Below, one piece after another: positions 49,101 through 62,583 of a stretch of DNA of 64,000 nucleotides. Source of the DNA: Escherichia coli (lineage in GTDB: Bacteria; Pseudomonadota; Gammaproteobacteria; Enterobacterales; Enterobacteriaceae); the NCBI GenBank assembly GCA_032372955.1, contig GCA_032372955.1_4725.1. The stretch is one strand, 5' to 3'. The translations under genes and the position numbers were made by a program. Every line of letters starts with the position of its first letter. Position 1 is the stretch's first letter. The notes beneath the pieces were generated by a model that worked only from the letters and a program-made list of their open reading frames with translations, made no database searches and was not told the DNA's origin.

Positions 49101-52100
49101 TGCACCGCCGCTTAACACCGCCCCAAGACCGCCTAGAATTTTTCCAAGCGGACTCGCCATGAGTCGTTTACCTAATGCGGTATCGCCGAGCATATCGAAA
49201 AGGCTTCCGAGTAATCCCCGTTTCTTCTCCTTTTCTTCTCCTTTATTGGAATCTTTGCCGGTGTCGTCCTTACCGTTTTCCTTGGCTGCACGCTTACGTT
49301 TCAGGTCTTCCAACGATCCTTCTCGAACACCATCGCCATTCCAATCGCGGTAATCCTTATCGCCACCCGGCATACGCTGGTCAAGAAGCTGGTAAATAGC
49401 ATCGAGGCGATCTACCATGCTCGACGTTGTTCCCACCAGTAATGCGTCAGGTGATTGGAAATTTAATCCCATCCGTCGTAGACCGTTAACGGTTTTACCT
49501 GGAAGGGCTTTAAGGATGTCCTTTGTCTTACGTAGCAGCGTTAACGGTAACGTAAAAGCTTTTACGCCGAAGTTGATGAGCTTTTCTTTTAAACGACGAA
49601 TCGCTTTACCGTATTTATCGACAAGTCCTTTCTGCATGTCGGCAAGCGTAAGTACGACGTTACCTTGTGCATCAACAACATCACCATCGATGTCTTCAAG
49701 ATTTTTGATGACTTGTCCATCAGAGCGACGGAAATACCCGCCAGCTGCTAACACCATGGACAACAGACGAGGCGTTGATTCTCCCTTGACGTAAACGTCG
49801 GGTGTTTTGTCAAGCTGTTTGTAGATCTCGACCGCACCGCGTTTTAACATCCGTGGCAGACTTAATACCGTCGTGATTCCATTAAGACCTTCACGTGCCC
49901 ACGCCTTAAGTCCTGAATTCTCAAAGGCACGACCAGCGCGAGTGACCAACCCTTTCTCGATATCCTCGTTGCTGATTACGATGTTTCCATCCGCATCAAC
50001 GAGTGGGCCTTTGATATCCTTCATCCGTTTTACGGCTTTTCCTGTCGCTTCGTCGAAGTATAACCCCTGACGAAGTTTGGCAGCCAGTATGCGTGGTTGG
50101 GATTCCCCTTTAACGTAAATGTCAAACGGAACCTGATCAACCTTGGATAATGCGCCGAACACAAAACGGTTGAAATTGATAATGCGTCGGCCGGAATTTA
50201 CCAAACTACCCAACGTGCGTTCTGCACCCCAGCGTGCGCCTTTAACACCCAAACGTGCGGTATTTTTAATTCCTTTCCAGAGGAGATTACGGCCACCTTT
50301 AAAGAGGTTGCGTGCACCGAGTTTTTGTTTGGCACGATCGATAAATGAAATGGGTGCTGTACCTTCAGGTACATCTTCACCATCCAGTGAAACGTTATTA
50401 GACCAGTCTTTCTCAGAAATGGCTTTCAGCAACGCAAGCATTTCAGTACGTTGTTCGGATGCTTCAGATAACGCTTCGAGATAAAGCTCTTGCCACGCTC
50501 GATTCTGTTCTTCAAGCGATGTGGTGATAACACCCGTGTCGTTCCACCATTTATCATAGCCGATGTTTTCATCAACGGTTACTGTTCCAACAGCCTTGCG
50601 ATCGATGTTCGGCAGACCCGCATTTTGGACGTCATCAACTGATGGTTTTGCGTCACGATAACCTAGCGCCAGCGCTCTTGTTTCCTGAGCGGTTAATCGC
50701 GTATTAACATCACTACGTTCAGCGTACTCCGGTCGGTCGATGTATCGATCGATTTCAGAGAAATACCGATCGTGATTAACCGAGTAGCTTCCGTCGCTAT
50801 TTCTCGTTACGATACCGATACGTTCCAGATATTGGACGTCACCAGTACGTTTCAGTAGGTTAAGGTTACGCTGGATATCCGGTTGTAACGATTTCAGATT
50901 TCCGTAGCGAAGATCCGCTCGGTTACGTTCCGTGTAATATTGCCCGCGGTTTCCAATGACCTGATGACGTTCGCCCTTATCGTTGACATCATCACGAATA
51001 CCGTAACGGTCACGAAAGTACGTGGAAAGTTCCTTAATAGCGTCGCGGTCAATACTACGATCGAAGTTGCTTTCATCCGTAAAACGAGCCGGGTCGAATG
51101 CGATGTTTGCGTCGCTATCTCGTGCCAGCTGCTTAGCCAGTGCCTTCCTGGCTTTTTCCGATAATTGTTTATCGGGATCGACGACCGAGATAACCTCATT
51201 GAAACGGCTGGCGTAATAACCAAATGAACGTTTGTTAAACAGGGTGTCGTTGACGCTTTGTTCGCGCGTGCGCTGAGCCACGAATTGCCCGCTGATGCCG
51301 TCATAGACCTCGTAGTCGGGATCGCTGTTTCCCGTGCGGATGCCTTCACTGCTTTTCAGAATGCGAGCAAGAAAACCAGGAATAACTTCATTGATGCTGC
51401 GGTAAGTTAAACCGTCGAAAGACGTCTGCTCCGCCAATGTTTCAGCGGTGTCGTTCATCACACGGAAGTTACGTCCGCTGTCCATGTTGAACGCCCAACG
51501 CCCTGCGCCGCGTAACAATTGCTTGTAAAACGGATCGTTAAGATTGAATTCGTTTTTACGAATATCTTCCTGGAGCAGTTTACCGAGATTACGCGTCGTG
51601 TAAGCGGCAGCCTCACCACCTTGATCCACGGCTTTTAACGCGCTAGCGAATTTAGCGTTGGGGTGACGTTTTGCTAAATCGCGTAACGCCATCCTGCCTT
51701 TATTAGCCATCCATGGTGCGACAGTTGAGCCAATGAACTGACCCAACATCTTTCCTTGCATTTCCTTAATATCGCCTTCTGACCCCATCCCATCCATCAT
51801 GGACATCGAGTCACGTGCTTCGTTTAAACCGTATAACGCATCGTTTGCGCCAGACACGACGCCTTTTAAAGCACCTAATGCGTTGGTGGCAAGGTTCTTC
51901 TTAACATCGGCAAAGAAACGGTTCTCGAAAGAACTCATCGCATCTAACGCGTTACCAAAGAAACGTTGGTACGCGCTACGGCGGAATTCTTCCGACATTT
52001 TTGCTTTAGCTGCATCAGGTAAAGCCGTATTCTTCTGGATGTTTTGTAATAAACCGATATAGACTTCGGCTAACTTTTTATGCTGATCAAAACTTGCACG

Positions 52101-52808
52101 TTGAATCGCTAAGGAACGATATTTCAGTTCCAGGCTTTTACGCATGTAGCGCGCGGCGAATTCATTGTTGAAACCAACCATCTTGGCGACGCCTTCTTGC
52201 ATCGCACTCATTTGTTTGTTGGTTACAGCGTACCGTTTGTCAGCGATATCGTCACGGATACTCTCTTTCGCTTGCTGCTCAGCAAACTGATCCGCGTTTT
52301 GGTTTGCTGATTCGCCTAATGCCTCGGCAACCTTGCGGGCGATCTCATCGTCCCCCGCGCTCGCCATGCGTTGACGAAGGGTTTCTTCAGCATGTTTACG
52401 TTCGTCTTCTTCCTTGGCTTCTCGCTCCCACTGCTCGAGAATTTTCTTCGAGAAATCGGGCATGCTCGCGCGGTATTTCTTGGTCAGTTGTGCAGCTAAC
52501 CGTTTTGAGCTTTGGACCTTAGGAAGAACGTCACGAACGGCTTCATTGTATAGTTCCTTCGTGGATCCGACGGCGGAATCGATAAGATCCATACCGTCGC
52601 TGTAGCCCTTAGGCAATGCGTTTCTGGCGATCTCCTTCATTCTTTCGTAGGAAGTAAGATCTTCAGCAGCACCTTTAACCGCGCCTATCGCAAAGCGTGT
52701 TATCGGTTTACGATCGTCTTTGGGTTCGTTAAAATCGAGATCCAGGGAGAAGTCATCATCCCAGTTATCCCAATTATCATCACCCTCAACACGGGTTTTA
52801 TCTACCAT
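46143..52808 (-). CDS. giant virion-type protein (2221 aa) with glycine-rich hydrophobic segment and embedded lysozyme/muramidase-like domain
   Basis: GGAGG RBS before ATG 52808; EHESGNY and GRGFIQVTG lysozyme-like motifs encoded around 46800..47290; Gly-rich TM-like tract; Pro/Ala/Ser/Thr-rich C-terminus. Confidence 0.7.
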   Translation of the reverse strand: MVDKTRVEGDDNWDNWDDDFSLDLDFNEPKDDRKPITRFAIGAVKGAAEDLTSYERMKEIARNALPKGYSDGMDLIDSAVGSTKELYNEAVRDVLPKVQSSKRLAAQLTKKYRASMPDFSKKILEQWEREAKEEDERKHAEETLRQRMASAGDDEIARKVAEALGESANQNADQFAEQQAKESIRDDIADKRYAVTNKQMSAMQEGVAKMVGFNNEFAARYMRKSLELKYRSLAIQRASFDQHKKLAEVYIGLLQNIQKNTALPDAAKAKMSEEFRRSAYQRFFGNALDAMSSFENRFFADVKKNLATNALGALKGVVSGANDALYGLNEARDSMSMMDGMGSEGDIKEMQGKMLGQFIGSTVAPWMANKGRMALRDLAKRHPNAKFASALKAVDQGGEAAAYTTRNLGKLLQEDIRKNEFNLNDPFYKQLLRGAGRWAFNMDSGRNFRVMNDTAETLAEQTSFDGLTYRSINEVIPGFLARILKSSEGIRTGNSDPDYEVYDGISGQFVAQRTREQSVNDTLFNKRSFGYYASRFNEVISVVDPDKQLSEKARKALAKQLARDSDANIAFDPARFTDESNFDRSIDRDAIKELSTYFRDRYGIRDDVNDKGERHQVIGNRGQYYTERNRADLRYGNLKSLQPDIQRNLNLLKRTGDVQYLERIGIVTRNSDGSYSVNHDRYFSEIDRYIDRPEYAERSDVNTRLTAQETRALALGYRDAKPSVDDVQNAGLPNIDRKAVGTVTVDENIGYDKWWNDTGVITTSLEEQNRAWQELYLEALSEASEQRTEMLALLKAISEKDWSNNVSLDGEDVPEGTAPISFIDRAKQKLGARNLFKGGRNLLWKGIKNTARLGVKGARWGAERTLGSLVNSGRRIINFNRFVFGALSKVDQVPFDIYVKGESQPRILAAKLRQGLYFDEATGKAVKRMKDIKGPLVDADGNIVISNEDIEKGLVTRAGRAFENSGLKAWAREGLNGITTVLSLPRMLKRGAVEIYKQLDKTPDVYVKGESTPRLLSMVLAAGGYFRRSDGQVIKNLEDIDGDVVDAQGNVVLTLADMQKGLVDKYGKAIRRLKEKLINFGVKAFTLPLTLLRKTKDILKALPGKTVNGLRRMGLNFQSPDALLVGTTSSMVDRLDAIYQLLDQRMPGGDKDYRDWNGDGVREGSLEDLKRKRAAKENGKDDTGKDSNKGEEKEKKRGLLGSLFDMLGDTALGKRLMASPLGKILGGLGAVLSGGASLTGLLGKGLISGTGALVKGGLSAAGWLGRGALMAGGAALNAVGGLSGLGAFLISPVGLAIAGGALAAYAGWKIYQHFAEKPDPMQKLRLIAYGAKGDDKDFNKKLLATETYLTDHVVMTGDTIGFDPKADSEKILEIWELSLEDSDRMNEWKRWYLHRFIPVFARAYKLWKEHMPDEKKYMEMDKYPNGENKVKWSEAFIWPSDSPDGPYYVEANPLGSSGATRYIAGQDVKTLMLKQLEAIKKEYQNQIKQYSHDEAIADWSRMSDTQRKSVAPNALRGQKASLRFNDKRYNSAGAKGRQKLDATAVIESVDRRGRKWVAGGYIDELTSLRVRAYGIKVPLLSQIKVLMELEDAVEPGVVAEGKGVKYGGDLVALYKKFATKFGRDVNSKRDQDIWFAWMNNRFLPVFLTYYQHVSDMGGQGLLSDVVQNLKDSQRWEIGEALVATQYRDEKGTLQPVWSWNSCGFSGTEANTTSSSTKSQLDLLKEYADKEKVREKNAEASQEDTDKLSKIQELMMKQAGYEKKDGVWQKKSRITGGMSNAEANYNPNGNRVGASSFTASATSNAGLGSTGDLTGLPNMGLQKPAMGPGPEAGRRALVKSAVKRGITDPMEMAMFLANIEHESGNYTHVREGNYKTPERLKQVFPYKFRDVQDAAQTISMGPEAVFERVYGNRKDLGNTQKGDGAKYLGRGFIQVTGKANYARLSKTLNKDLVSDPTYLETPEGAAEGSVAWWLNRGNVLRDPAKRGDVRQVRYLVNGGFNGLRDVEQRSAYWIQAAKNGTLKKMMDELSGSTSDDQAEGPTTAEQVKNEAAQEANGTPAVSNDPQAPVSSTIPESKPSAAAGTAPAPGEASPTPGSFETAKAAAGQPTSTPAPSDLPSNPGANRGISVPNTPAQVAQSATQTSVASENFYGSAGEILRQQLTTQQNIEKNTGRTNELISELIQAVKGSSIGKGSAGPSQQQTMSLPNRPQGISPTRTRYAQ

Positions 52809-53053
52809 GTATACCTCCAGTTCGATACGTTCCCATGTTACGTTGGAACGTGATGCACGAAGTTTACCTTCGGCATTGATAATGTTGAAGCGTAACTTCA
52901 CACATCGCCCGCTTGATTTTATCAAGCAGGTACGTAACCTAATAACTTCCTCGCCTCAAGCAAGGAAGCGATGGGTGACGCCATCACCCATTACGTCTCT
53001 CGTGTGTTCAGATGATACCGCCGCAGCCGGTGGTGGTAAAGAGGAGTGTCTCC

Positions 53054-54520
53054 ATGGCTAAAGTCAGAGAGCCGTTTAATATTAGCATTTTGCGCCTCGA
53101 TAAACAGCAGTTACGTTTTCTCCCCAAGATCACGAGCATGAGCATCCGTGACCCAAGCACCGGTAATTTCCACGATGATGGTTTCTATTCTTACACCATC
53201 TTTGGTAGTGCGGGTAGTGAAGATCGAGACCGTCGATTTGCGGTGATCGAATGCAAGGTTGAAATCCTACACCCCGTCATTTACGACCGCCTCATTCGAC
53301 TAAAACACCTCTATGGCGATATCATGTCGGGGAAGGCGTACGCTCGGTGGGATCCTGAACAACGCGACTTCGTTGCGTCTGATGCGTTAACAGGACAAAC
53401 AGGATACGGGTTCTTTGCACAACACGTCGCGGATATCAAGTTCGTTTCAACGGGTTCAGCTCAACGAGAGCTACGAATTAAAGTTGTCGAAGAGAACATG
53501 TTCAAAGCGATGACCCGTCACTTACTGGTATTGCCTGCGGGCTTACGCGAAATAGAAGTAAAAGAAGGCGGGTATGAAAGCGAGCAAGAAATCACGGAGT
53601 TGTATCGTCGTTTCCTTGCAATTTCTAACACCGTCCCTGATGGATTAAAAGATTATTCTGATCCCGTTTACGACGGTCAACGTTGGAGCTTACAGAGAAC
53701 ATTTAACGATATCTACGCTTTGTTGTTGGATATGTTCCAAGGTAAGAAAGGGATCTTCCAAGGTAAGTTCGGTTCACGTCGCGTTTGGAACTCAACCCGT
53801 AACGTTATTTCGGCAATTAACCCCACAACAGAGGTACTAGGGTCGCCCAACCAGCCTTCCTGTACCGCAGTTCAGTTAGGGTTATACCAGATGAGCAAAG
53901 CCGCCCTACCCGTGACGCAACATGCGTTACGTACGGGGATTTTGCAGGAAATATTTGTCCGTGATGTTACAGAAGTTGAACTTATCGATACCGAAACGAT
54001 GGAACGTGAACGTGTCACGCTTGATCCAGACACCATCGATGACTTTACAACATGGGACGGAATAGAACGTTTATTGAACACCTTAAGCGATCCTGGTGTA
54101 CGTAACGAACCCATCATGGTTAATGGGCGTTATCTTTGTCTCGTCTATGTGAACAATGATTCGTTTCGGTTATTCCGTGGTATGAGTGAATTACCCCCGG
54201 AGATGCTGAATAAGCCTGGTGCGGATGTTCACCCCATCACGTACACCGAGCTTATCTATATTGCCGGATATAAGTACTGGAATAACCTGGCTGCGATGGT
54301 AACACGTTATCCGGTATCGGGTATGCAATCCGTTATCCCGTTAACCTGTTACGCGCGTACAACCGTTGCAGCAAAACCGAAAACCGAACTGGATAGTAAC
54401 TGGGAACCAATAACGGATGAACGATTTATCGCATGGGAATACCCCGACTGGTTACCTAATGCCTCGTTCGTAGAAACTACTATTGTTCCTGCGCCATACC
54501 TCGCCGGTTTAGGCGGTGAT
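53054..54520 (+). CDS. RNA polymerase beta-prime-like subunit, N-terminal module, exon 1 (predicted 3' boundary)
   Basis: AAGAGGAG RBS; beta-prime-like segments ELYRRFL and GKKGIFQGKFGSRRVWNSTRNVI; boundary placed after U54520 by homology and frame. Confidence 0.6.
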
Positions 54521-55002
54521 AAGTCCTTGAAAAATAAAGACTTTTTTCAATGGAAGTTGTCCGGTATTCCCGAAAGGGAGTGCTTGAAAAACCTACGAAT
54601 TGCTGGGAACCCCTAAAGCTCAACGACCCATGAGGTGCCGAAAGGCAGAAACAACAGTTGAGATGCACTACCTCCCACGGAGGCTTAGGCTGAAAGAAAA
54701 GCCGCGTAAGCGGTGCTAAGGTGCGCGATAATGGGCAATCAGCAGCCTGGTTGTTGCGTAGTAATACGGCATTCTTGAAAACAAGAATGTGAAACAACGC
54801 AGGTTCAACGACTAAGGGATTTACCACCCTGTAGAGGACAAGCGTCTTCGAAGTGTAGGTTACCGTAACAGGTGTTGCTGAAGTATTCTTCAGCGAAGCT
54901 GACGGTTTGATATAGTCTCCTCTTGCATGAAAGTGCAAGCAGCCTGTGATGTACGTATCCATGCAGGCGGTCTCAGCGTAGCGACCTGAGGCGAAGACAA
55001 GG
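54521..55002 (+). ncRNA. group I intron (ORF-less), intron 1, boundaries predicted
   Basis: Q-like AATCAGCAGC 54737-54746, R GTTCAACGACTAAGGG 54793-54808, S GATATAGTCT 54909-54918, P8-like hairpin CTTGCA/TGCAAG; flanked by two halves of one conserved protein motif. Confidence 0.7.
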
Positions 55003-55182
55003 TTCGACGGTGATACGGTCTCGGTTAACGTTCTTTATTCCATGGAAGCCATTGACGAAATTACCAACTCGCACAAGAAGCGAGCTTTCTGGGTAAGTGG
55101 TAAAAATAAATTCAACATCGATATTGGTTACGATACGGTTGCGTTTCTATTACGCAACTTAACGGGACCTCGTGGAGCCTAA
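55003..55182 (+). CDS. RNA polymerase beta-prime-like subunit, exon 2 (begins FDGDTVSVNV...)
   Basis: frame encodes FDGDTVSVNVLYSMEAIDEI...IGYDTVAFLLRNLT, matching bacterial [20 protein letters not shown]...SQDVVLGLYYMT; stop at 55180. Confidence 0.6.
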   Translation, partial: FDGDTVSVNVLYSMEAIDEITNSHKKRAFWVSGKNKFNIDIGYDTVAFLLRNLTGPRGA

Positions 55183-55185
55183 CCC

Positions 55186-58100
55186 ATGGCAAAACTTAAA
55201 TACCTTGATTACTACCGACAGTTTGGTGTCAGACGCTACCAAGAGCTACTATCACCAAGATTACGTTTAGTGCAGCTACTGCAGCTGCCGCGTTATGCTG
55301 TCTATCATTACACCGCAACGGATCCTTCATTGATAGGTCCTCCAGAAAACGAATACATGCTGAGCAAAGAAAGTGCTCAACTATGGATTTCGTTTGCTGA
55401 TGATCTCGCAACCAAACAGGGTGCACCCCGACGTGATCAACGATTCCAACTCCCACGAGCGAAATTGGATTATCGTGCATCACATCGTCGTTTTCGTTTG
55501 GTTACCGATCTAAGCGCGGTGGAGAAAAACATCAACGCTCAGATCGTTGCTAACTACGCGCATCTTAACCACATGTACATTTATCGTCCAACGCTCACCC
55601 GTTGGTATGATGAATGGTTCAACGTACGTAAAACAATTTGGTCGAAAGCCAACGAAATCGCACAGCAAAGCGATCGTCAACACTTTTTGTTGTTCCGTAT
55701 ACCGTCAAAATTGCCGAAGATTTCGTTGATGCGTACCACGCAACAGGCACCGACCCGTAACAACCTCATGAATTTCGCCACGCCGGAGGAGCTGTCGTTC
55801 TTTGACTTCTTCCGCTGGTTGGGCGTCGATCGTGAGAACAGCACGATGGCTTCGTTAGACAGGGCCATGCTGGATAAGCTTAACGTCGTATTTACAGACG
55901 GTGTGTACTTCTTTACGCTGAATCTCGGCCTGCTGGAGGAATGGCGTACCGGACTTGTGAAGGAAGGGGAAGAACTCGATAAAACGACGCTTGAAACCTT
56001 CCAACGACGTTGGATGATGGCGGTAACACGTCTGTGGTCGCAGAGTGCGAATGAAGAAGAACAGAAACAAGAAGAGGAACAGGTTCTTCGTCAAGAGCGA
56101 GATATTCTTGCAGCCAGCCCGGATGCGGAGTACGATGATCGTGACGTCGTGCTTCCTAACGGTGAGGATCTGGCTACCGTTCTCGATCCCGATGAGTTAG
56201 AAGCGGAGTTGGTCGGTGGGTCGGATGAAGACGATGATGCTGATGCATGGAACGCCATCGTAGAACGCTCGTTCGAAGATGTCCGTGAAGTACCTGGGGT
56301 AGAAGTACAACCGGATTTCCAACCTGATGAAGATCAGGACATTACCGACGATCTCTTCGAAGTCGTTACCGACGATACCGAAGAAGAAAAGGTTGATGTC
56401 TTTGACGCGGCAACGTTACCAAAAACGCATGGCGAATATATTCAGTCGCTATCGGATGCGGTGTTGGTACGCGCGAGTGATCTGGCGGATGCGGGTCAGT
56501 TAAGCGGTGTCCAGTATAAAGCAGCGATGCGTAACGCCGACGCCATTCACGAAATCGAAGCACCCGACGGTTCTGGATTAACACTTGCTGAGTATGTCGA
56601 AGTTAAACCAAAAGCCGCAAAATTAGCTCCCGCAAAGGTTATGCCGGAAGCGGATGTTATCGTCGACAAGAGCTTATGTAAATCGACGCTCGCGGTGTGG
56701 GATAAACATTACGTCGAACACGTAATGCAAAAGGACATCGCAGCTGCCGTTGTTGCGGTACAGCAGGCGGGTTACCCTGTTACGGGATATAAAGTTGAAG
56801 ATGTTGTTGACGTGATGGGGGACTATCAAGTCATCACGATTAAACTGGCCCCTGTAGGCGGTGTCCCGACCACGTTCCCGGTGATGTTGCCGAAGGTTCG
56901 TAAGGACGGCATTTATGTCGTTAACGGTATCAAGTACCGGATGCGTAAACAACGCGTCGATAAACCTATTAGAAAGGTATCGTCATCTGAAGTCGCATTG
57001 AGTACCGCCTACGGTAAGGTGTTTGTTAAACGTTCAGAGCGCGTCGTTAATAACGCCGGTCGTTGGTTAACACGCCAACTTACGGCGATGTATTACGATA
57101 AGTCCTCGCCCTTAACAACGTTAAAACGCGGTAACGTCTTTGATCCGGCTGTCAAAGTTCCGTATTACTTCGCTGTGCTTGCACGCAACTATACCCAAAT
57201 CCAATTTGCTGATTGGGATATACGTCTCGATATAAAAACATTGCCGGAGTTCATCGGGGAAGATCGGTTCAACGAACAGTTAGCCGAAGGACTCCTGACG
57301 TTCGCGCGTAACACGTTGGGTGAATTCTTAGCAATCGATAAACGCAATCAGCTCTATATCTGTCAGTCGGGACAAACACCAACACCTGTAGGGACGTTCC
57401 CTGATTTCTTCGGCATTAATGCGGCTAAGATGCCGATCGAAGCCGCCGATCTTGAATTCATGGGTGTACGTATTCCGGTCGGTGTTGTTCTAAGTTATCT
57501 GGGTGGGCTTACCCCGTTATTAGAACATCTTAAAGCGAACTATCGTACGGTACCTCGCGGCTCTCGTATGGGGTTAGCACCCGATGAATTCGCAGTGAGC
57601 TTTGACGACGAAAGTCTGATCTTCAGTAAAGACGATCGCATGACGACGTTGTTGCTGGGTGGGTTTAACGAATACCGTAACTACATTGGTTACGCTCGCG
57701 GTGCTTTCGACAATCGAGATATCTATTTTAACGTTGTTGATGGTGCTGGACTTAAGGTTCGCCATTTGCGCGAACTTGAACTCATGGAGCGTCTTTTCAT
57801 CGATCCGGTAAGCCGTACGTTGTTGCAGAACATGGGAGAACCTACCGATTTCGCCATGTTGTTACTGCGTGCTGTTGAACTGCTTCTGGATGATTGGGCA
57901 CCTAACACGAACGATGTGAACTACCAACGTTTTAAAACGTACGATAAGTTCGCTGAATTGGTGTATAAGGACCTGGTTGGCGCTATTCGTCAGAATGAGA
58001 ACAGCAGTCAAGGGAACCGCCAGAAAATCTCAATCAGTCCGGTAAGCGTCTGGAACCAAATTCTCGACGATAGCGCTTCCATCGTGATCGATGAAACCAA

Positions 58101-58335
58101 CCCGATGCTGGATATCAAGCAGGGTGAAGAAGCAACGATGACCGGTATCGGGGGTCGTTCAAAGACATCGCTTCGACGCGCACGTGATCGCGAATACGAC
58201 AAGTCGGACATTGGTGTTGTATCCGAAGGTACGAAGGATAGTGGGGACGTAGGTATTTCTGCTTACCTCGCACCTAACGCAAACATTGTGTCTGTATACG
58301 GTGAAACGAAACCTTACGACGAGAAAACGGATGGT
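55186..58335 (+). CDS. RNA polymerase beta-like subunit, N-terminal module, exon 1 (3' boundary approximate)
   Basis: ATG 3 nt after the beta-prime stop; C-terminal part DETNPM...TGIGGRS...RRARDRE...SEGTKDSGDVGISAYLAPNANIVSVYGETKPYDEKTDG parallels E. coli beta DQNNPL...LGPGGLTRERAGFEVRDVH...[36 protein letters not shown]. Confidence 0.55.
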
Positions 58336-58874
58336 AGCTCGTCAATAATGAGTACATCAGCACTTGCAGTACCTGCTGCTGATAGAGATGATTAACGCTT
58401 TTAATAGCAGGGTCCGTCTATGTGGCGACATGTAGATGAGATTCACTGAATTGCGAAGACATCCGTCGCTGTTATCGACCAAAACGGATTCTGAAAAGAA
58501 AGACGGTACGGTATAAAAACAGATAATAGCTTAAGGACAATCCGCAGCCAAGTACCTAAGGATCGCTGTGAAGCGTTCTAAGGTAAAGGTTCAACGACTA
58601 AGGGATTCATCCCCCTGTACCCCTCGAGTGAGGCATTCTCCTTGGATAAGAGAATGGTGCTGGATGCGCTGGGAAGAAGTGAACTCTCGTTGAGGTGCTG
58701 AAGAAGCACCGTTTGAAACGAGATGTGATATAGTCTGCTCTTGCGTGAGAGCGCAAGCGGGAGGTGGTGCGCCTATCATCGCCTCCGGGATAAGACTAAC
58801 GACCTTATCTGAACAATCTAATCTCAGTCTTATTTCGGTAACGGTATGTTAATACTGAATAAGAACTAAATTCG
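58336..58874 (+). ncRNA. group I intron (ORF-less), intron 2, boundaries approximate
   Basis: P-like AATTGCGAAG 58449-58458, Q AATCCGCAGC 58539-58548, R GTTCAACGACTAAGGG 58589-58604, S GATATAGTCT 58727-58736; homologous to intron 1 with a compensatory change in the P8-like stem. Confidence 0.7.
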
Positions 58875-60014
58875 CCCAAGAGATTGGTATTTATAGGTAT
58901 CCAACACAACCGCATGATTGCTGCTGAAGGTTACGATGTACAGCCGTGGCGTACGGGTGGTGAGACTGTTATCGCGCATCGTGTTGGTAAGCTCTTCGCA
59001 GCAGCTGCCCAAGGCGATGGTGTTGTGAAGAAGGTCACTAAAACTGCGCTGACGATACAGTACGACGACCCAGAGTTAGGGGAAGAGGTTTTCCAGCTCG
59101 GTACGATAATCGGGAAAGGACCAGGTAAGTATTATCCTCACGATCTCATTACCGATTATAAAGTCGGGGATCGCGTTAAGGATCAGGATGTGGTGGTTTT
59201 CCACCGCCTTTATTTTAAACGCGATTGGTGGAACCCAGGTCAGGTTGTTTGGCGCGCAGGTGTTCTGTCTCTTGTCGGTATTCTGGATATTCCAGAGACC
59301 CACGAGGACAGCTCGTATATCTTCGACAATCTTGCTGATCGTCTCGTAACACCATCGATTAAGAGTCGTACGCTTATCGTTGACGCTCATCTCAACATTC
59401 GTGGTCTCGTGAAAATCGGTGATCATGTTGAACCGCGAACGATTCTTGCAACACTGGAAGAACCGATTGCAACCGATCTGAGTGATGAGAGTCAGGAAGC
59501 CGTTGAAGCATTACGTCGTATGAGTCAGTATAACCCACGTGCTGATGTTCATGGTGAAGTTGTACAGATCGATGTACTGTACCGCGCTCAGATTGAAGAC
59601 ATGAGTGAAACCATGGCAGCGCTCGTCGGTGAGGCAGATAAAGCACGAGCTAAACGCGTCAAGGAACTGAAACTCAACGAAGCAACAACGGGGCGTATCA
59701 ATAACAGTAACGTGAGAATAGACGGTAATCCGTTAGGCGAGAACCAGATCGCCATCCGTATTTTCATGCGTTACGACCTTGGTGCGGGGATGGGTGATAA
59801 AGGTACCTTCGCAGCTCAAGCGAAATCCGTTGTCTCTTCCGTGGGTCATGGTGTGAACAAAACCGAAGACGGGCACACCCTTGATGCTATCTTCAGTGGC
59901 ACCAGTATCGCTAACCGTATCATCGGTTCACCGGAAGTGGTTGGGACTGTGAATCTTGGTCTCCTCTACGCAACGGAACGAGCTGTTGATATTTACTTTA
60001 ACGACGCTAAATAA
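58875..60014 (+). CDS. RNA polymerase beta-like subunit, exon 2 (5' boundary approximate)
   Basis: open frame extends upstream of the track start (TTG at 58884) to 58863; IGIQHNRMIAAEGYDV parallels E. coli beta IHYLSAIEEGNYV directly after the TDG motif. Confidence 0.55.
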   Translation, partial: PKRLVFIGIQHNRMIAAEGYDVQPWRTGGETVIAHRVGKLFAAAAQGDGVVKKVTKTALTIQYDDPELGEEVFQLGTIIGKGPGKYYPHDLITDYKVGDRVKDQDVVVFHRLYFKRDWWNPGQVVWRAGVLSLVGILDIPETHEDSSYIFDNLADRLVTPSIKSRTLIVDAHLNIRGLVKIGDHVEPRTILATLEEPIATDLSDESQEAVEALRRMSQYNPRADVHGEVVQIDVLYRAQIEDMSETMAALVGEADKARAKRVKELKLNEATTGRINNSNVRIDGNPLGENQIAIRIFMRYDLGAGMGDKGTFAAQAKSVVSSVGHGVNKTEDGHTLDAIFSGTSIANRIIGSPEVVGTVNLGLLYATERAVDIYFNDAK

Positions 60015-60048
60015 GAGCAGGGGGCGTCATGCCCCTGCTCATTTATTT
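60015..60048 (+). terminator. intrinsic terminator GAGCAGGGGC/GCCCCTGCTC plus T-rich tail
   Basis: 10-bp perfect stem, then ATTTATTTCG. Confidence 0.6.
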
Positions 60049-60115
60049 CGCTGAACGCAATACCTTCTTGACATGCGTCAAGAATGCGATGCTTTGACAT
60101 TAAAAGGAAAAGTGA

Positions 60116-60349
60116 ATGAACCAAGAACAACTTAACACGGCTCGGGCAGCGAGCTTTGTTGCGCTGACGAACGCGGTAACGTTGGTTGCTGAGGTCGTAC
60201 GTCAAACCGTTGGTAATGATGCCGCCGATCCTGACGTGAACAAAAAGGTTATGCCGTTGGGATTGGAAGATGCGGTTGCTGCGCGCTTAAACAGCCGTCT
60301 GGAAACCAAAGAACCCGTAGGTAGTAATGCGTTGGAGGGAGCGCAGTAA
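60116..60349 (+). CDS. hypothetical small protein
   Basis: 77-aa ORF; AAAGGAAAAG RBS; stop overlaps next start (TAATG). Confidence 0.45.
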   Translation: MNQEQLNTARAASFVALTNAVTLVAEVVRQTVGNDAADPDVNKKVMPLGLEDAVAARLNSRLETKEPVGSNALEGAQ

Positions 60350-61872
60350 TGATCACCAATAAAACCGTCTATGCTGTTGAGCCCATTGTCGAAGGGTTTA
60401 TCAAACGTAATCAAATCGTCGCAGCCATTCCGGGCACGCCGTTAGCCGCGGTTTGTGAAACCATGCATTGGAACCAGCCACCGGAAGACGCGGATGCGTT
60501 GGTGCAGCTTAGTGCCGAACGTATGGTTGTTGCTGAAACACTTGATGAAACCGAAGATGGCGCTGTAGCACCTGCCAGCGAACGCGAGGTTTATATCCAC
60601 GATGAAGTTTTACAGACCGCAGTTCAAGACGTGGTGGAAAAAGTGGTGTATGCCAAAGAGTTGGCGCGTAACACCATCCTGCCGAAATGCCGTGCGCTGT
60701 ACCCGGAACTGGAAAAACGTATCGATTCGATCATCCTGGCACCGAAACTGATCCCGACAGTAAGTCTGAGTTACTACCCTGAGTTTTATAACTCCGAAGA
60801 GTACCAGGCGTTAGTTAGTGATTACGATCTCAATGGCTTGATTTCGATTAATAACGATTTCACCCCAACCGGAAAGCTTGCGTTTATCACCGGCGATAAG
60901 CTGCGTACGTTACTGTATACCGGTAATGAAAACCTGGATCGTTTTGTACAGCAAGCAACGGAAGGGATGAGCGATCAGGCACTGGAAGACATCTACAACT
61001 ATTTCTTCCGTGGTTCCGCTCCTTCTTCGAACAACACCGCTTATCTGATTACGTATCCGGATAGCGATAACGTTGCATTCCACGGTTCCAGCGCTGCGGC
61101 AACTCCTGCATTCCTCTGCTATATGTGGGCCGTTAACCTGCTGGAAGATATCCAGGACGGCAACGACATGATGCTTGAAAACTACCGCGCTAAAATGCAG
61201 CAAGCTCGTGCTGCGGCGATCAACGGGATGGCACGCGTCGGTCGTGATCGTATTCTGCGTATGGAGCGTGGTGAACTGATTCTTTCTGCGCCGTCAGCTT
61301 CTCAGATTCAACGTGCTGAAGACGCGTCAACGATGACGATTTTCGTTAACGCGGATGTCTACATGGGTTATCTGCAAGAAGGTGGTTCACCGGAAGCGTT
61401 AACCGCAGCCGTCCTGTTAGAACGCGAACTCATCAGTAAAGATGAACTGTTGGCTAACGGTGCAGGCTTCATGCAGCATTATCGTAACTACATCAACATG
61501 AAAGCCAGCCAGCAAGCCGCAAACCGCTTACGTGCATACGCGTTGGCATTGCAGGGCGTATTTGCTGACCTTATTACGGCGGACCTCGATGAAGATACCC
61601 GTAAGAAGGTTATGGAAATCGTACGTGGTGAAGTTGCTATCCTTACCGATACCGATGTAGCTAACTTCCAGCAGTATTTCCGTACACTGTACGTGAAAAC
61701 GATGCATCATGAAGACGCTCAAGGCGTTAACCGTCTCATCGATGAGATCGATTTGATTATGCGTGAACGTCCTGAACTCACGGTATTCGAAGCAGCAACC
61801 ATCGCAACGATGCATCTGACCACCGATTACGTGGCCCAGCAGCTTTACGTTATCCAGATTAGCGAGGTGTAA
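60349..61872 (+). CDS. hypothetical protein
   Basis: 507-aa ORF; GGAGGGAG RBS. Confidence 0.5.
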   Translation: MITNKTVYAVEPIVEGFIKRNQIVAAIPGTPLAAVCETMHWNQPPEDADALVQLSAERMVVAETLDETEDGAVAPASEREVYIHDEVLQTAVQDVVEKVVYAKELARNTILPKCRALYPELEKRIDSIILAPKLIPTVSLSYYPEFYNSEEYQALVSDYDLNGLISINNDFTPTGKLAFITGDKLRTLLYTGNENLDRFVQQATEGMSDQALEDIYNYFFRGSAPSSNNTAYLITYPDSDNVAFHGSSAAATPAFLCYMWAVNLLEDIQDGNDMMLENYRAKMQQARAAAINGMARVGRDRILRMERGELILSAPSASQIQRAEDASTMTIFVNADVYMGYLQEGGSPEALTAAVLLERELISKDELLANGAGFMQHYRNYINMKASQQAANRLRAYALALQGVFADLITADLDEDTRKKVMEIVRGEVAILTDTDVANFQQYFRTLYVKTMHHEDAQGVNRLIDEIDLIMRERPELTVFEAATIATMHLTTDYVAQQLYVIQISEV

Positions 61873-62583
61873 ATGGCGCTTGTCCGCAACGGTGCTGCGG
61901 TGCTTGCGGACTGGGACATACAAGAAGATAAATCTGTTGTTACTCGTGGCGGGTGTTCGATTCTGACGCCCGTCCGTTACGAGGGATTGGGTTTATCTAT
62001 CATCGGGAGTGAGAACCGGGTTTGTGCGTGCTGCCCGATTATTCTTCCTGATGGACAGTATGGTGTCAGCCACGCATTGACCCAGCTCCATATCGACCCA
62101 TCTGACATCCGTGAGATTACCATGGATGGTCAGCCGTTTTATGAATTTGTGTTTCTTCCCGGCGACACGGTGTTGGTGTCAACCGATGTCGTGATGCGAA
62201 ACTCTTTCCCGTGGCTGATGTATAACGAGATCTATACGCTCGGTAAAGTGCCATGGTGGTATACCGAAAAAGAAAAATATCAATTGCTGTACACGTCAGC
62301 GAAATTGGCGGGCGTTAAATTGAATGCGGATAGCAGCATCTATTCTGTTCTGGCGTCTATCACCACACGTGACCCCAACGATCGTCGTCGGGCGTGGCGT
62401 CTGCTTTCGGATGAAGAACGCAGCACCTTAAAAGCCATCGACATCGGATTACGAAACATTATCGATAGTGGTACAAACACCATCACCAACTTAATGGGTG
62501 GTTACGTGAATAACGCAATCGATAGTAGTTTGGTTTATCCTGCGGATACGATCAGCGAAACAGAAGCGATTCTGAGGGGGTGA
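61873..62583 (+). CDS. hypothetical protein
   Basis: 236-aa ORF; GAGGTG RBS; abuts previous stop. Confidence 0.5.
   Translation: MALVRNGAAVLADWDIQEDKSVVTRGGCSILTPVRYEGLGLSIIGSENRVCACCPIILPDGQYGVSHALTQLHIDPSDIREITMDGQPFYEFVFLPGDTVLVSTDVVMRNSFPWLMYNEIYTLGKVPWWYTEKEKYQLLYTSAKLAGVKLNADSSIYSVLASITTRDPNDRRRAWRLLSDEERSTLKAIDIGLRNIIDSGTNTITNLMGGYVNNAIDSSLVYPADTISETEAILRG

Follow-up and report, generated by a model that had tools for sequence, protein, structure and literature searches.

The 64,000-nt stretch of DNA analyzed here (“the window”; NCBI GenBank assembly GCA_032372955.1, contig GCA_032372955.1_4725.1, deposited as Escherichia coli) carries two introns that interrupt two adjacent virion RNA polymerase (RNAP) genes of a Goslar-like nucleus-forming jumbo phage, and these introns most probably belong to one widespread family of group I introns, each of them tied to its own insertion site, rather than being a pair of duplicates. 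The subfamily they represent occupies at least three conserved sites in the RNAP genes of jumbo phages. Over positions 52000–62000, the window has 96% identity with Escherichia phage vB_EcoM_Goslar, a jumbo phage that forms a nucleus, and the order of the genes is the same as in phiKZ (gp180-gp179-gp178) and PhiPA3 (212-211-210-209). The two introns are as follows (here and below, a slash in a protein or exon motif marks the splice junction):

54521..55002, plus strand: intron 1, a group I intron of 482 nt, inserted at D/FDGD, the catalytic metal-binding motif
58393..58874, plus strand: intron 2, a group I intron of 482 nt, inserted after two conserved Asp, DRDD/PKRLVF

Each of them is a group I intron by its RF00028 score, its core helices and the restoration of the reading frame. 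The Rfam model RF00028, the curated gathering score of which is 50 bits, matches intron 1 at 54535–54939 (64.1 bits, E 6e-14) and intron 2 at 58391–58757 (52.8 bits, E 1.5e-10), in both cases over model positions 1–253, i.e., its full length. With the boundaries fixed by comparison with Goslar, excision of intron 1 gives an in-frame GGD/FDGDTVSV (in full, ...LAGLGGD/FDGDTVSV...), and excision of intron 2 an in-frame DRDD/PKRLVF, the spliced gene 2 being 4347 nt long, which is exactly the length of Goslar gp207; in neither Goslar gp207 nor phiKZ gp178 is there an interruption at the intron 2 junction. A U at position -1 precedes each intron, and a G is its last base. Both introns would probably be spliced. 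No endonuclease open reading frame (ORF) with nuclease motifs was found in either of the introns among the open reading frames of the window. The common length of 482 nt is treated as a coincidence, since the length is not constant among the variants of either intron. An RNA feature (“Intron_gpI”) already marks intron 1 in the Goslar record, and intron 2 is absent from the Goslar reference, with no annotation of intron 2 present in the two matching phage records (both Goslar) and no mention of introns in the Goslar genome paper (PMC6563267).

That the two introns are homologous, and that a hairpin following their S blocks shows a compensatory base-pair change, had been claimed in an earlier note on this DNA, and blastn places their likeness above chance, with one block of 33 nt at 91% identity (54801–54833 vs. 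58587–58619, E 6e-5) and another of 80 nt at 70% identity (54908–54987 vs. 58726–58805, E 4e-7). The quoted blocks are in place (R, GTTCAACGACTA, at 54803 and 58589; S, GATATAGTC, at 54909 and 58727), and so are the quoted hairpins (CTTGCATGAAAGTGCAAG at 54922–54939 and CTTGCGTGAGAGCGCAAG at 58740–58757). The segment between R and S, described as shared as well, is so for its first ~20 nt, which are P7.1 (AAGGGAUU..C.CCCUGUA), but not for P7.2-P3'-P8, which differs between the two and is 32 nt longer in intron 2. The elements concerned are:

54801..54833, plus strand: intron 1 R element, with J6/7, the P7 5' strand GACUA (54810–54814) and P7.1 (54815–54830)
58587..58619, plus strand: intron 2 R element, with J6/7, the P7 5' strand (58596–58600) and P7.1 (58601–58616)
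54909..54917, plus strand: intron 1 S element, GAUAUAGUC, with the P7 3' strand at 54913–54917
58727..58735, plus strand: intron 2 S element, GAUAUAGUC, with the P7 3' strand at 58731–58735
54922..54939, plus strand: intron 1 P9 (the flagged hairpin), CUUGCAU-GAAA-GUGCAAG, A54927:U54934 being G:C in intron 2
58740..58757, plus strand: intron 2 P9, CUUGCGU-GAGA-GCGCAAG
54942..54968, plus strand: intron 1 P9.1 hairpin, with three compensatory changes relative to intron 2
58760..58786, plus strand: intron 2 P9.1 hairpin of 10 bp, covarying also among the intron 2 variants (window, L008, L010)
54970..54992, plus strand: intron 1 P9.2 hairpin, loop CGUAGCGAC, with the 3' splice site 10 nt downstream
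58788..58810, plus strand: intron 2 P9.2 hairpin, loop ACUAACGAC, near-identical to the P9.2 of the T-even td intron, with three compensatory changes relative to intron 1
58829..58863, plus strand: extra hairpin of intron 2, between P9.2 and the 3' splice site, found in the intron 2 lineage only

The flagged hairpin does have the same geometry in both introns, but is better drawn as a 7-bp stem with a closing U.G and a GNRA loop (GAAA vs. GAGA) than as 6 bp around a 6-nt loop. Its A:T to G:C change is genuine, and, as a single compensatory pair between two sequences is little proof when taken alone, it is more telling that it is one of seven such changes in three consecutive hairpins (one in P9 and three each in P9.1 and P9.2), beside which two changes are one-sided. 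In a sequence-only MAFFT alignment of five intron 1 and three intron 2 variants, the 21 pairs of P9, P9.1 and P9.2 are 98% paired vs. 34–44% in a slid control (pairing partners shifted by 1–3 columns), and two-sided changes are seen at 7 pairs vs. 0–2 when slid. Consensus folding, which the earlier note had proposed as a check, leads to the same result, RNAalifold without any structure input predicting P7, P7.1, P9, P9.1 and P9.2 with the same seven changed pairs. Further, 31 relatives taken from viral contigs and phage records were aligned to a covariance model built from intron 1 alone (R1; 196 nt, 53 pairs). Over the 29 distinct sequences of this family alignment, 98.1% of the cells are paired vs. 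36–41% when slid, and two-sided changes occur at 42 of the 53 pairs, with covariation in P7.1, P7.2, P8 and P9–P9.2. The flagged P9 pair is A:U in 23 of the 29 distinct sequences, G:C in 4 and U:A in 2, being unpaired in none. As the R1 alignment is fitted to a structure, it leans towards that structure, whereas the MAFFT result is free of such bias.

P7.1 and P7.2 are present in both introns, and all 10 of their pairs show double changes family-wide (99% paired). The pairs of P7 and P7.1 are identical between introns 1 and 2; P7.1 covaries family-wide, and P7 is nearly invariant and therefore uninformative on covariation either way. For P7.2–P8 no pair counts between introns 1 and 2 are given, because R1 takes this part of intron 2 as one large insertion, and the MAFFT alignments of the R-to-P9.2 region were left unused for P7.2, P3' and P8, as these helices were misaligned. 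Similarity confined to the short R and S blocks with no structure-preserving covariation, i.e., the outcome that the earlier note had named as speaking against its claim, is not what was found, as P9–P9.2 covary, and selection acting on RNA structure, which the note had proposed, is upheld by the seven compensatory changes together with the covariation across the family. Covariation by itself confirms a known RNA fold and no more.

Several features of this 3' domain may be recorded in their own right. The P9.2 loop UA(A/G)CGA(C/A) (54977–54985 and 58795–58803; also in L003, L004, L034 and L035) is conserved in nearly all of the family members, its stem being free to change, and it resembles the CAACGAC of the R element. 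The gap from P9.2 to the 3' splice site is only 10–12 nt in intron 1, td, phiKZ, PhiPA3 and vB_pir03. Within the stretch of the extra hairpin (58816–58874), the sequence in the window is unrelated to the versions found in L008, L010 and L039.

How close the kinship of the two introns is can be judged from their relatives. The R, S and P9 sequences are traits of the family, the P9 hairpin being found in ~25 otherwise different viral introns: a scan of the viral contig collection for GATATAGTCTNNTCTTGCNTGA gave 25 loci, which with few exceptions read CUUGCAUGA(A/G)A(G/A)UG(C/U)AAG, and the hairpin is also present in a Staphylococcus phage nrdE intron. Pattern matches at L036 and L031 were discarded as chance occurrences that are not introns. 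The 5' halves of introns 1 and 2 have no blastn match to each other at E <= 1e-3, and blastn aligns each of them with other introns instead: nt 8–238 of intron 2 with the PhiPA3 gp210 intron (65% over 236 nt, E 3e-12), and the 5' half of intron 1 with the introns of Staphylococcus phage MarsHill and Proteus phage 7, while nt 281–412 of intron 1 align with the vB_pir03 intron. The R1 model scores intron 2 at 81 bits, unrelated viral contigs at 77, 72 and 71 bits, L040 and L043 at 91–95 bits, phiKZ and vB_pir03 at 68 bits each and PhiPA3 at 54 bits; it misses the T-even td intron (L003), the 201phi2-1 intron (L033) and the Proteus phage 7 intron (L005), which were compared by blastn and by eye. 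A neighbor-joining tree of 97 well-occupied columns recovers an intron 1 clade and an intron 2 clade with bootstrap values of 99% and 100%, respectively, and gives no support above 40% to a sister grouping of introns 1 and 2.

Both of the sites are occupied in other chimalliviruses. At the intron 1 site, phiKZ reads LGAD/FDGDTVSF, with a 92-bit RF00028 match right after gp179, and Vibrio phage vB_pir03 reads /FDGD; the 3' exon of the Proteus phage 7 intron has the same FDGD motif. At the intron 2 site, PhiPA3 reads MNDD/MKRVGF, the published position of its gp210 intron being directly behind two conserved Asp in the gene for the virion RNAP beta subunit (PMC11620839), and an intron is annotated at this site in 201phi2-1 as well. 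For the phiKZ gp179 intron, PMC10914365 dates the prediction to 2002. Intron 1 would be part of a lineage resident at its site that also includes the phiKZ gp179 and vB_pir03 introns, and intron 2 part of another, resident at its own site, that includes the PhiPA3 gp210 intron.

The 92-bit match in phiKZ (L034 2504–2870) lies between gp179 and gp178, and the reference record has neither a gp180 join nor a feature there. At L040 4058–4209 and L043 5501–5652 (on contigs of 248 kb and 180 kb, respectively), an intron with the R-P7.1 block sits at a third RNAP beta site, GRFGN/KGVVS; the exon ends in AAU, the guide is GUU, and there is an HNH ORF in L043.

Some observations weigh against the view of two site-bound lineages of a single family. 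In the 3' half, introns 1 and 2 are reciprocal nearest neighbors by raw distance (0.26 vs. 0.26–0.36 to others), and they are the only ones in the panel that align to each other gap-free across P9.1 and P9.2, so that a closer link between the two, confined to the 3' domain, is possible. The panel itself was gathered with patterns taken from introns 1 and 2 and is a biased sample of the family. The exon part of the P1 helix proposed below amounts to only 3–5 bp, and P10 to 2–3 bp at best. The data are genomic sequence, and for phiKZ, a study of the transcriptome by long reads is reported to have yielded no spliced reads of the gp179 intron (PMC10914365), which calls for caution.

A recent duplication within the genome, i.e., one RNAP-gene intron having been copied into the neighboring gene in a Goslar-like lineage by reverse splicing or off-target homing and having diverged later, is an improbable explanation, even though both 5' exons end in GAU and both guides are GUC (a shared target that would ease the copying), an exact match of 21 nt is found in the R-P7.1 block, the total lengths are identical, and the HNH/NUMOD ORFs found in relatives of the two are of one type and identically placed (27% identical, E 7e-13), in addition to the distance and gap pattern of the 3' half just mentioned. 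The 5' halves lack a mutual match, that of intron 2 aligning over 236 nt with PhiPA3 and that of intron 1 elsewhere; the R-P7.1 block is also present in vB_pir03 and in L040 and L043, the latter two outscoring intron 2 on the model of intron 1; the sister grouping is without bootstrap support; and both sites are occupied in distant chimalliviruses. Moreover, intron 2 has foreign exon flanks, from which it follows that it moved together with beta-gene exon sequence, as a jump from the neighboring gene would not give these. Of the earlier note's proposal that one intron had been duplicated or had spread into two RNAP genes, the within-genome duplication is thus not supported by the 5' halves, the tree or the exon flanks, and the broad spread, over at least three conserved RNAP sites, holds.

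Just as doubtful is a mosaic, in which introns of different lineages would have had their 3' domains (R-P7.1 and S to P9.2) made alike by intron recombination, in one genome or in a mixed infection, and would be partly paralogous. It would fit 3' halves that are reciprocal nearest while the 5' halves group elsewhere, and module exchange is seen in the family, the P9.2 of the L010 intron 2 sharing 31 identical bases with that of T-even td, and P4–P6 of intron 2 being 79% identical to the vB_pir03 intron, which is located at the other site. The excess similarity of the 3' half is small, though (0.26 vs. 0.26–0.29 for the next neighbors of intron 1), in P9.1 and P9.2 the two introns have an identity of just 56%, no higher than with other family members, and no identical tract is shared by introns 1 and 2 beyond the 21 nt of a family-conserved block. 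That nothing but the universal group I catalytic core is shared, with a coincidental compensatory pair, is very hard to believe, for, although R (GUUCAAaGACUA), S (GAUAUAGUC) and the P9 hairpin are in the Rfam consensus for the whole family and a lone double change in a comparison of two sequences counts for little statistically, the similarity reaches the subgroup helices P7.1, P9.1 and P9.2, which are missing from the Rfam model, and the compensatory changes are seven vs. 0–2 when slid, with the flagged pair never unpaired family-wide.

The architecture of the two introns is as follows, the complementarity of P3, P4, P6, P7 and P8 having been confirmed for both and the intron 1 helices agreeing with the Rfam alignment:

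54591..54860, plus strand: intron 1 core helices, P3 (54591–54596 with 54855–54860), P4 (54601–54606 with 54739–54744), P5 with an extension of ~120 nt, P6 (54746–54755 with 54793–54803) and P7.2 (54834–54849)
58442..58722, plus strand: intron 2 core helices, P3 (58442–58446 with 58679–58683), P4 (58452–58457 with 58541–58546, one A.C mismatch), P5 with an extension, P6 (58553–58585), P7.2 with an extra hairpin (58622–58656) and P8 (58686–58722)
54557..54583, plus strand: intron 1 guide, UUGUC (54557–54561) facing exon GAU/ plus AA, and P2 (54564–54583) with a GAAA loop
58411..58436, plus strand: intron 2 guide, GGUC (58411–58414) facing exon GAU/ plus U, and P2 (58417–58436) with a GCGA loop

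A GUCC just 5' of P2 is conserved in intron 1, intron 2 and the Goslar, phiKZ, vB_pir03 and PhiPA3 introns, and the GUC of this guide is able to pair with the last three exon bases, GAU, with a G opposite the splice-site U. Guide and target covary, GUC going with GAU/ at two sites and GUU with AAU/ at the third one (L040 and L043), and the latter change in the third-site relatives supports the assignment of GUC and GAU as the putative P1. The first guess at the intron 2 guide, GUCCGUCU facing AGAUGAU, was dropped, as GUCUAUGUG...CAUGUAGA turned out to form the P2 hairpin, for which the window and L008 show covariation. The length of P8 in intron 1 (54862–54906) varies by strain: the window, L041 and L042 have the short form, Goslar (L001 5394–5466), L010, L038 and L044 have an extra 28-nt hairpin, and in L037 (8396–8570) it is 21 nt shorter.

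Each intron RNA would thus, after transcription, fold into the P3–P8 catalytic core, with the guide GUC just 5' of P2 pairing with the GAU that ends the upstream exon and encodes Asp in both genes; guanosine would attack after the U of this codon, the terminal intron G would then mark the 3' splice site, and the exons would be joined, restoring GGD-FDGD (the beta-prime catalytic motif) in one protein and DRDD-PKRLVF in the beta subunit. P9, P9.1 and P9.2 would make up a 3' peripheral domain whose stems are kept by compensatory substitutions.

As for mobility, intron 1 of Goslar has 1572 nt, with an HNH ORF, gp206, in place of window positions 54521–54558 alone. This ORF (L001 3606–5078) encodes 490 aa, with HNH_3 at E 3e-8 and a weak NUMOD1 match below the Pfam cut-off, and at the equivalent place of intron 2, L008 has an ORF (L008 3054–4265) of 403 aa with NUMOD1 at 2e-8 and HNH_3 at 5e-3, the latter below the Pfam cut-off; the 3' end of the L008 ORF reads through the ribozyme P2–P6. 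The two proteins are 27% identical over 264 residues (E 7e-13). Both window introns have probably lost the HNH homing endonuclease ORF, which in relatives separates the 5' splice site from the guide.

Intron 2 is polymorphic in Goslar-like alleles, being present in four (window, L008, L010 and L039) and absent from three (Goslar, i.e., L001 8650–8990, L037 and L044), and the intron-plus and intron-less classes each have their own exon haplotype around the site. Gene 2 of the window differs from that of Goslar at 5.45% of sites overall and at 22 of the 60 sites closest to the insertion point of intron 2 (30 nt to either side; P 3e-13), the junction being the most divergent 60-nt window of the whole gene. 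The divergence extends well into the upstream exon:

57985..58392, plus strand: divergent exon tract, ~400 nt upstream of intron 2, continuing downstream at 58875–58904 (~30 nt)

Per 100 nt, the tract at 57985–58392 has 11, 6, 16, 29 and 17 differences from Goslar (the mean being 4.1), most of which are synonymous (75 nucleotide changes, 9 amino-acid changes). The presence/absence pattern and the tract together would be the mark of homing with co-conversion: intron 2 seems to have entered, or to have been lost from, the Goslar lineage by a homing-type recombination that also converted the neighboring exon sequence.

The interrupted genes, with the exons as delimited here, are:

53054..54520, plus strand: gene 1 exon 1, virion RNAP beta-prime N-terminal-type subunit, homologue of phiKZ gp180 and Goslar gp205, ending ...LAGLGGD
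55003..55182, plus strand: gene 1 exon 2, 59 codons and a stop, beginning FDGDTVSVNVLYSME, by translation
55186..58392, plus strand: gene 2 exon 1, virion RNAP beta subunit, homologue of phiKZ gp178 and Goslar gp207, ending ...AVPAADRDD
58875..60014, plus strand: gene 2 exon 2, by open frame and translation

The start of gene 1 at 53054 was taken from the Goslar gp205 annotation, the open frame itself running from 53012; up to 54520, its exon 1 has 96% identity with Goslar. Gene 1 matches PHROG 2986 (E 3e-179) and, weakly, the beta-prime subunit of AR9 (PDB 7S01_d), its exon 2 aligning with the DYDGD region of that subunit. Gene 2 matches PHROG 3148 (E 2e-230) and is 45% identical to PHIKZ178 (phiKZ gp178) and 96% identical to Goslar gp207 by tblastn. 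An antisense open frame of 160 codons (54480–54962, minus strand) overlies intron 1 and is probably spurious. Annotation of this phage would need both virion RNAP genes to be joined across their introns, as otherwise gene 1 is left without its FDGD motif and gene 2 is left in two pieces.

The most useful by-product of this analysis is arguably the polymorphism itself, with alleles that have the intron, lack it or bear an endonuclease coexisting in one E. coli jumbo-phage group. The known introns at catalytic sites of jumbo-phage RNAP now extend to a group of E. coli phages, and this group could offer a tractable system for the intron-mediated competition of PhiPA3 and phiKZ. More speculatively, and this is put forward as a tentative scenario that may well turn out otherwise, the beta-site intron, located at exactly the RNAP site where the intron endonuclease of PhiPA3 was shown to put a co-infecting rival out of action, would be segregating in Goslar-like E. 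coli jumbo phages (with HNH, without it or absent altogether), leaving the ~400-nt silent-site tract behind; L008-type phages would nick and out-compete the intron-less Goslar; the subfamily would retarget among RNAP catalytic-site codons by means of a three-base guide (GUC for GAU/, GUU for AAU/), and it would swap modules with the T-even td intron in mixed infections.

Among the known systems, the PhiPA3 gp210 intron (in the gene gp211 and gp209; Birkholz et al. 2024, PMC11620839) is like intron 2 in gene, insertion point and ribozyme architecture, and its endonuclease lies upstream of the ribozyme core, as does the HNH endonuclease in the intron 2 of L008; intron 2 of the window differs from it in having no endonuclease ORF, in the low identity, in the extra hairpins in P7.2 and after P9.2, and in the host (E. 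coli vs. Pseudomonas). Intron 1 shares its site and architecture with the phiKZ gp179 intron (in gp180) and the Goslar “Intron_gpI”, the ribozyme part of the latter being 90% identical to intron 1, but the HNH ORFs that separate the 5' splice site from the guide in phiKZ and Goslar (gp179 and gp206, respectively) have only 38 nt in their place in the window; the Goslar record annotates the ribozyme core alone and leaves the exons unjoined. RF00028, for its part, has neither P7.1 and P7.2 nor P9.1 and P9.2, which are insertions or lie beyond the 3' end of the model.

The td intron of T4 and other T-even phages, which we take to be of subgroup IA2, has the same order of helices as introns 1 and 2, with P7.1 and P7.2 between P7 and P3', followed by P9, P9.1 and P9.2, and its 3' splice site lies 10 nt after P9.2, as in intron 1, whereas intron 2 has the extra hairpin there. 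Introns 1 and 2 are, in this layout, T4-td-like phage introns. The td intron differs in lying in the thymidylate synthase gene, in the P5 extension, in the sequences of P9 and P9.1, and in having its endonuclease ORF between the P6 region and P7 and not next to P1. In sequence, nt 325–423 of intron 2 are 73% identical to the td intron of phage TuIa (T-even), and nt 392–423 (32 nt, P9.2) are 97% identical to the td introns in 229 T-even-like phage records. L010 10569–10600 (minus strand) and L003 1165–1200, corresponding to window positions 58786–58815, have 31 identical bases over the whole P9.2, a helix that otherwise varies at every pair, and this identity hints at an exchange of modules between the introns of phages sharing E. 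coli as their host.

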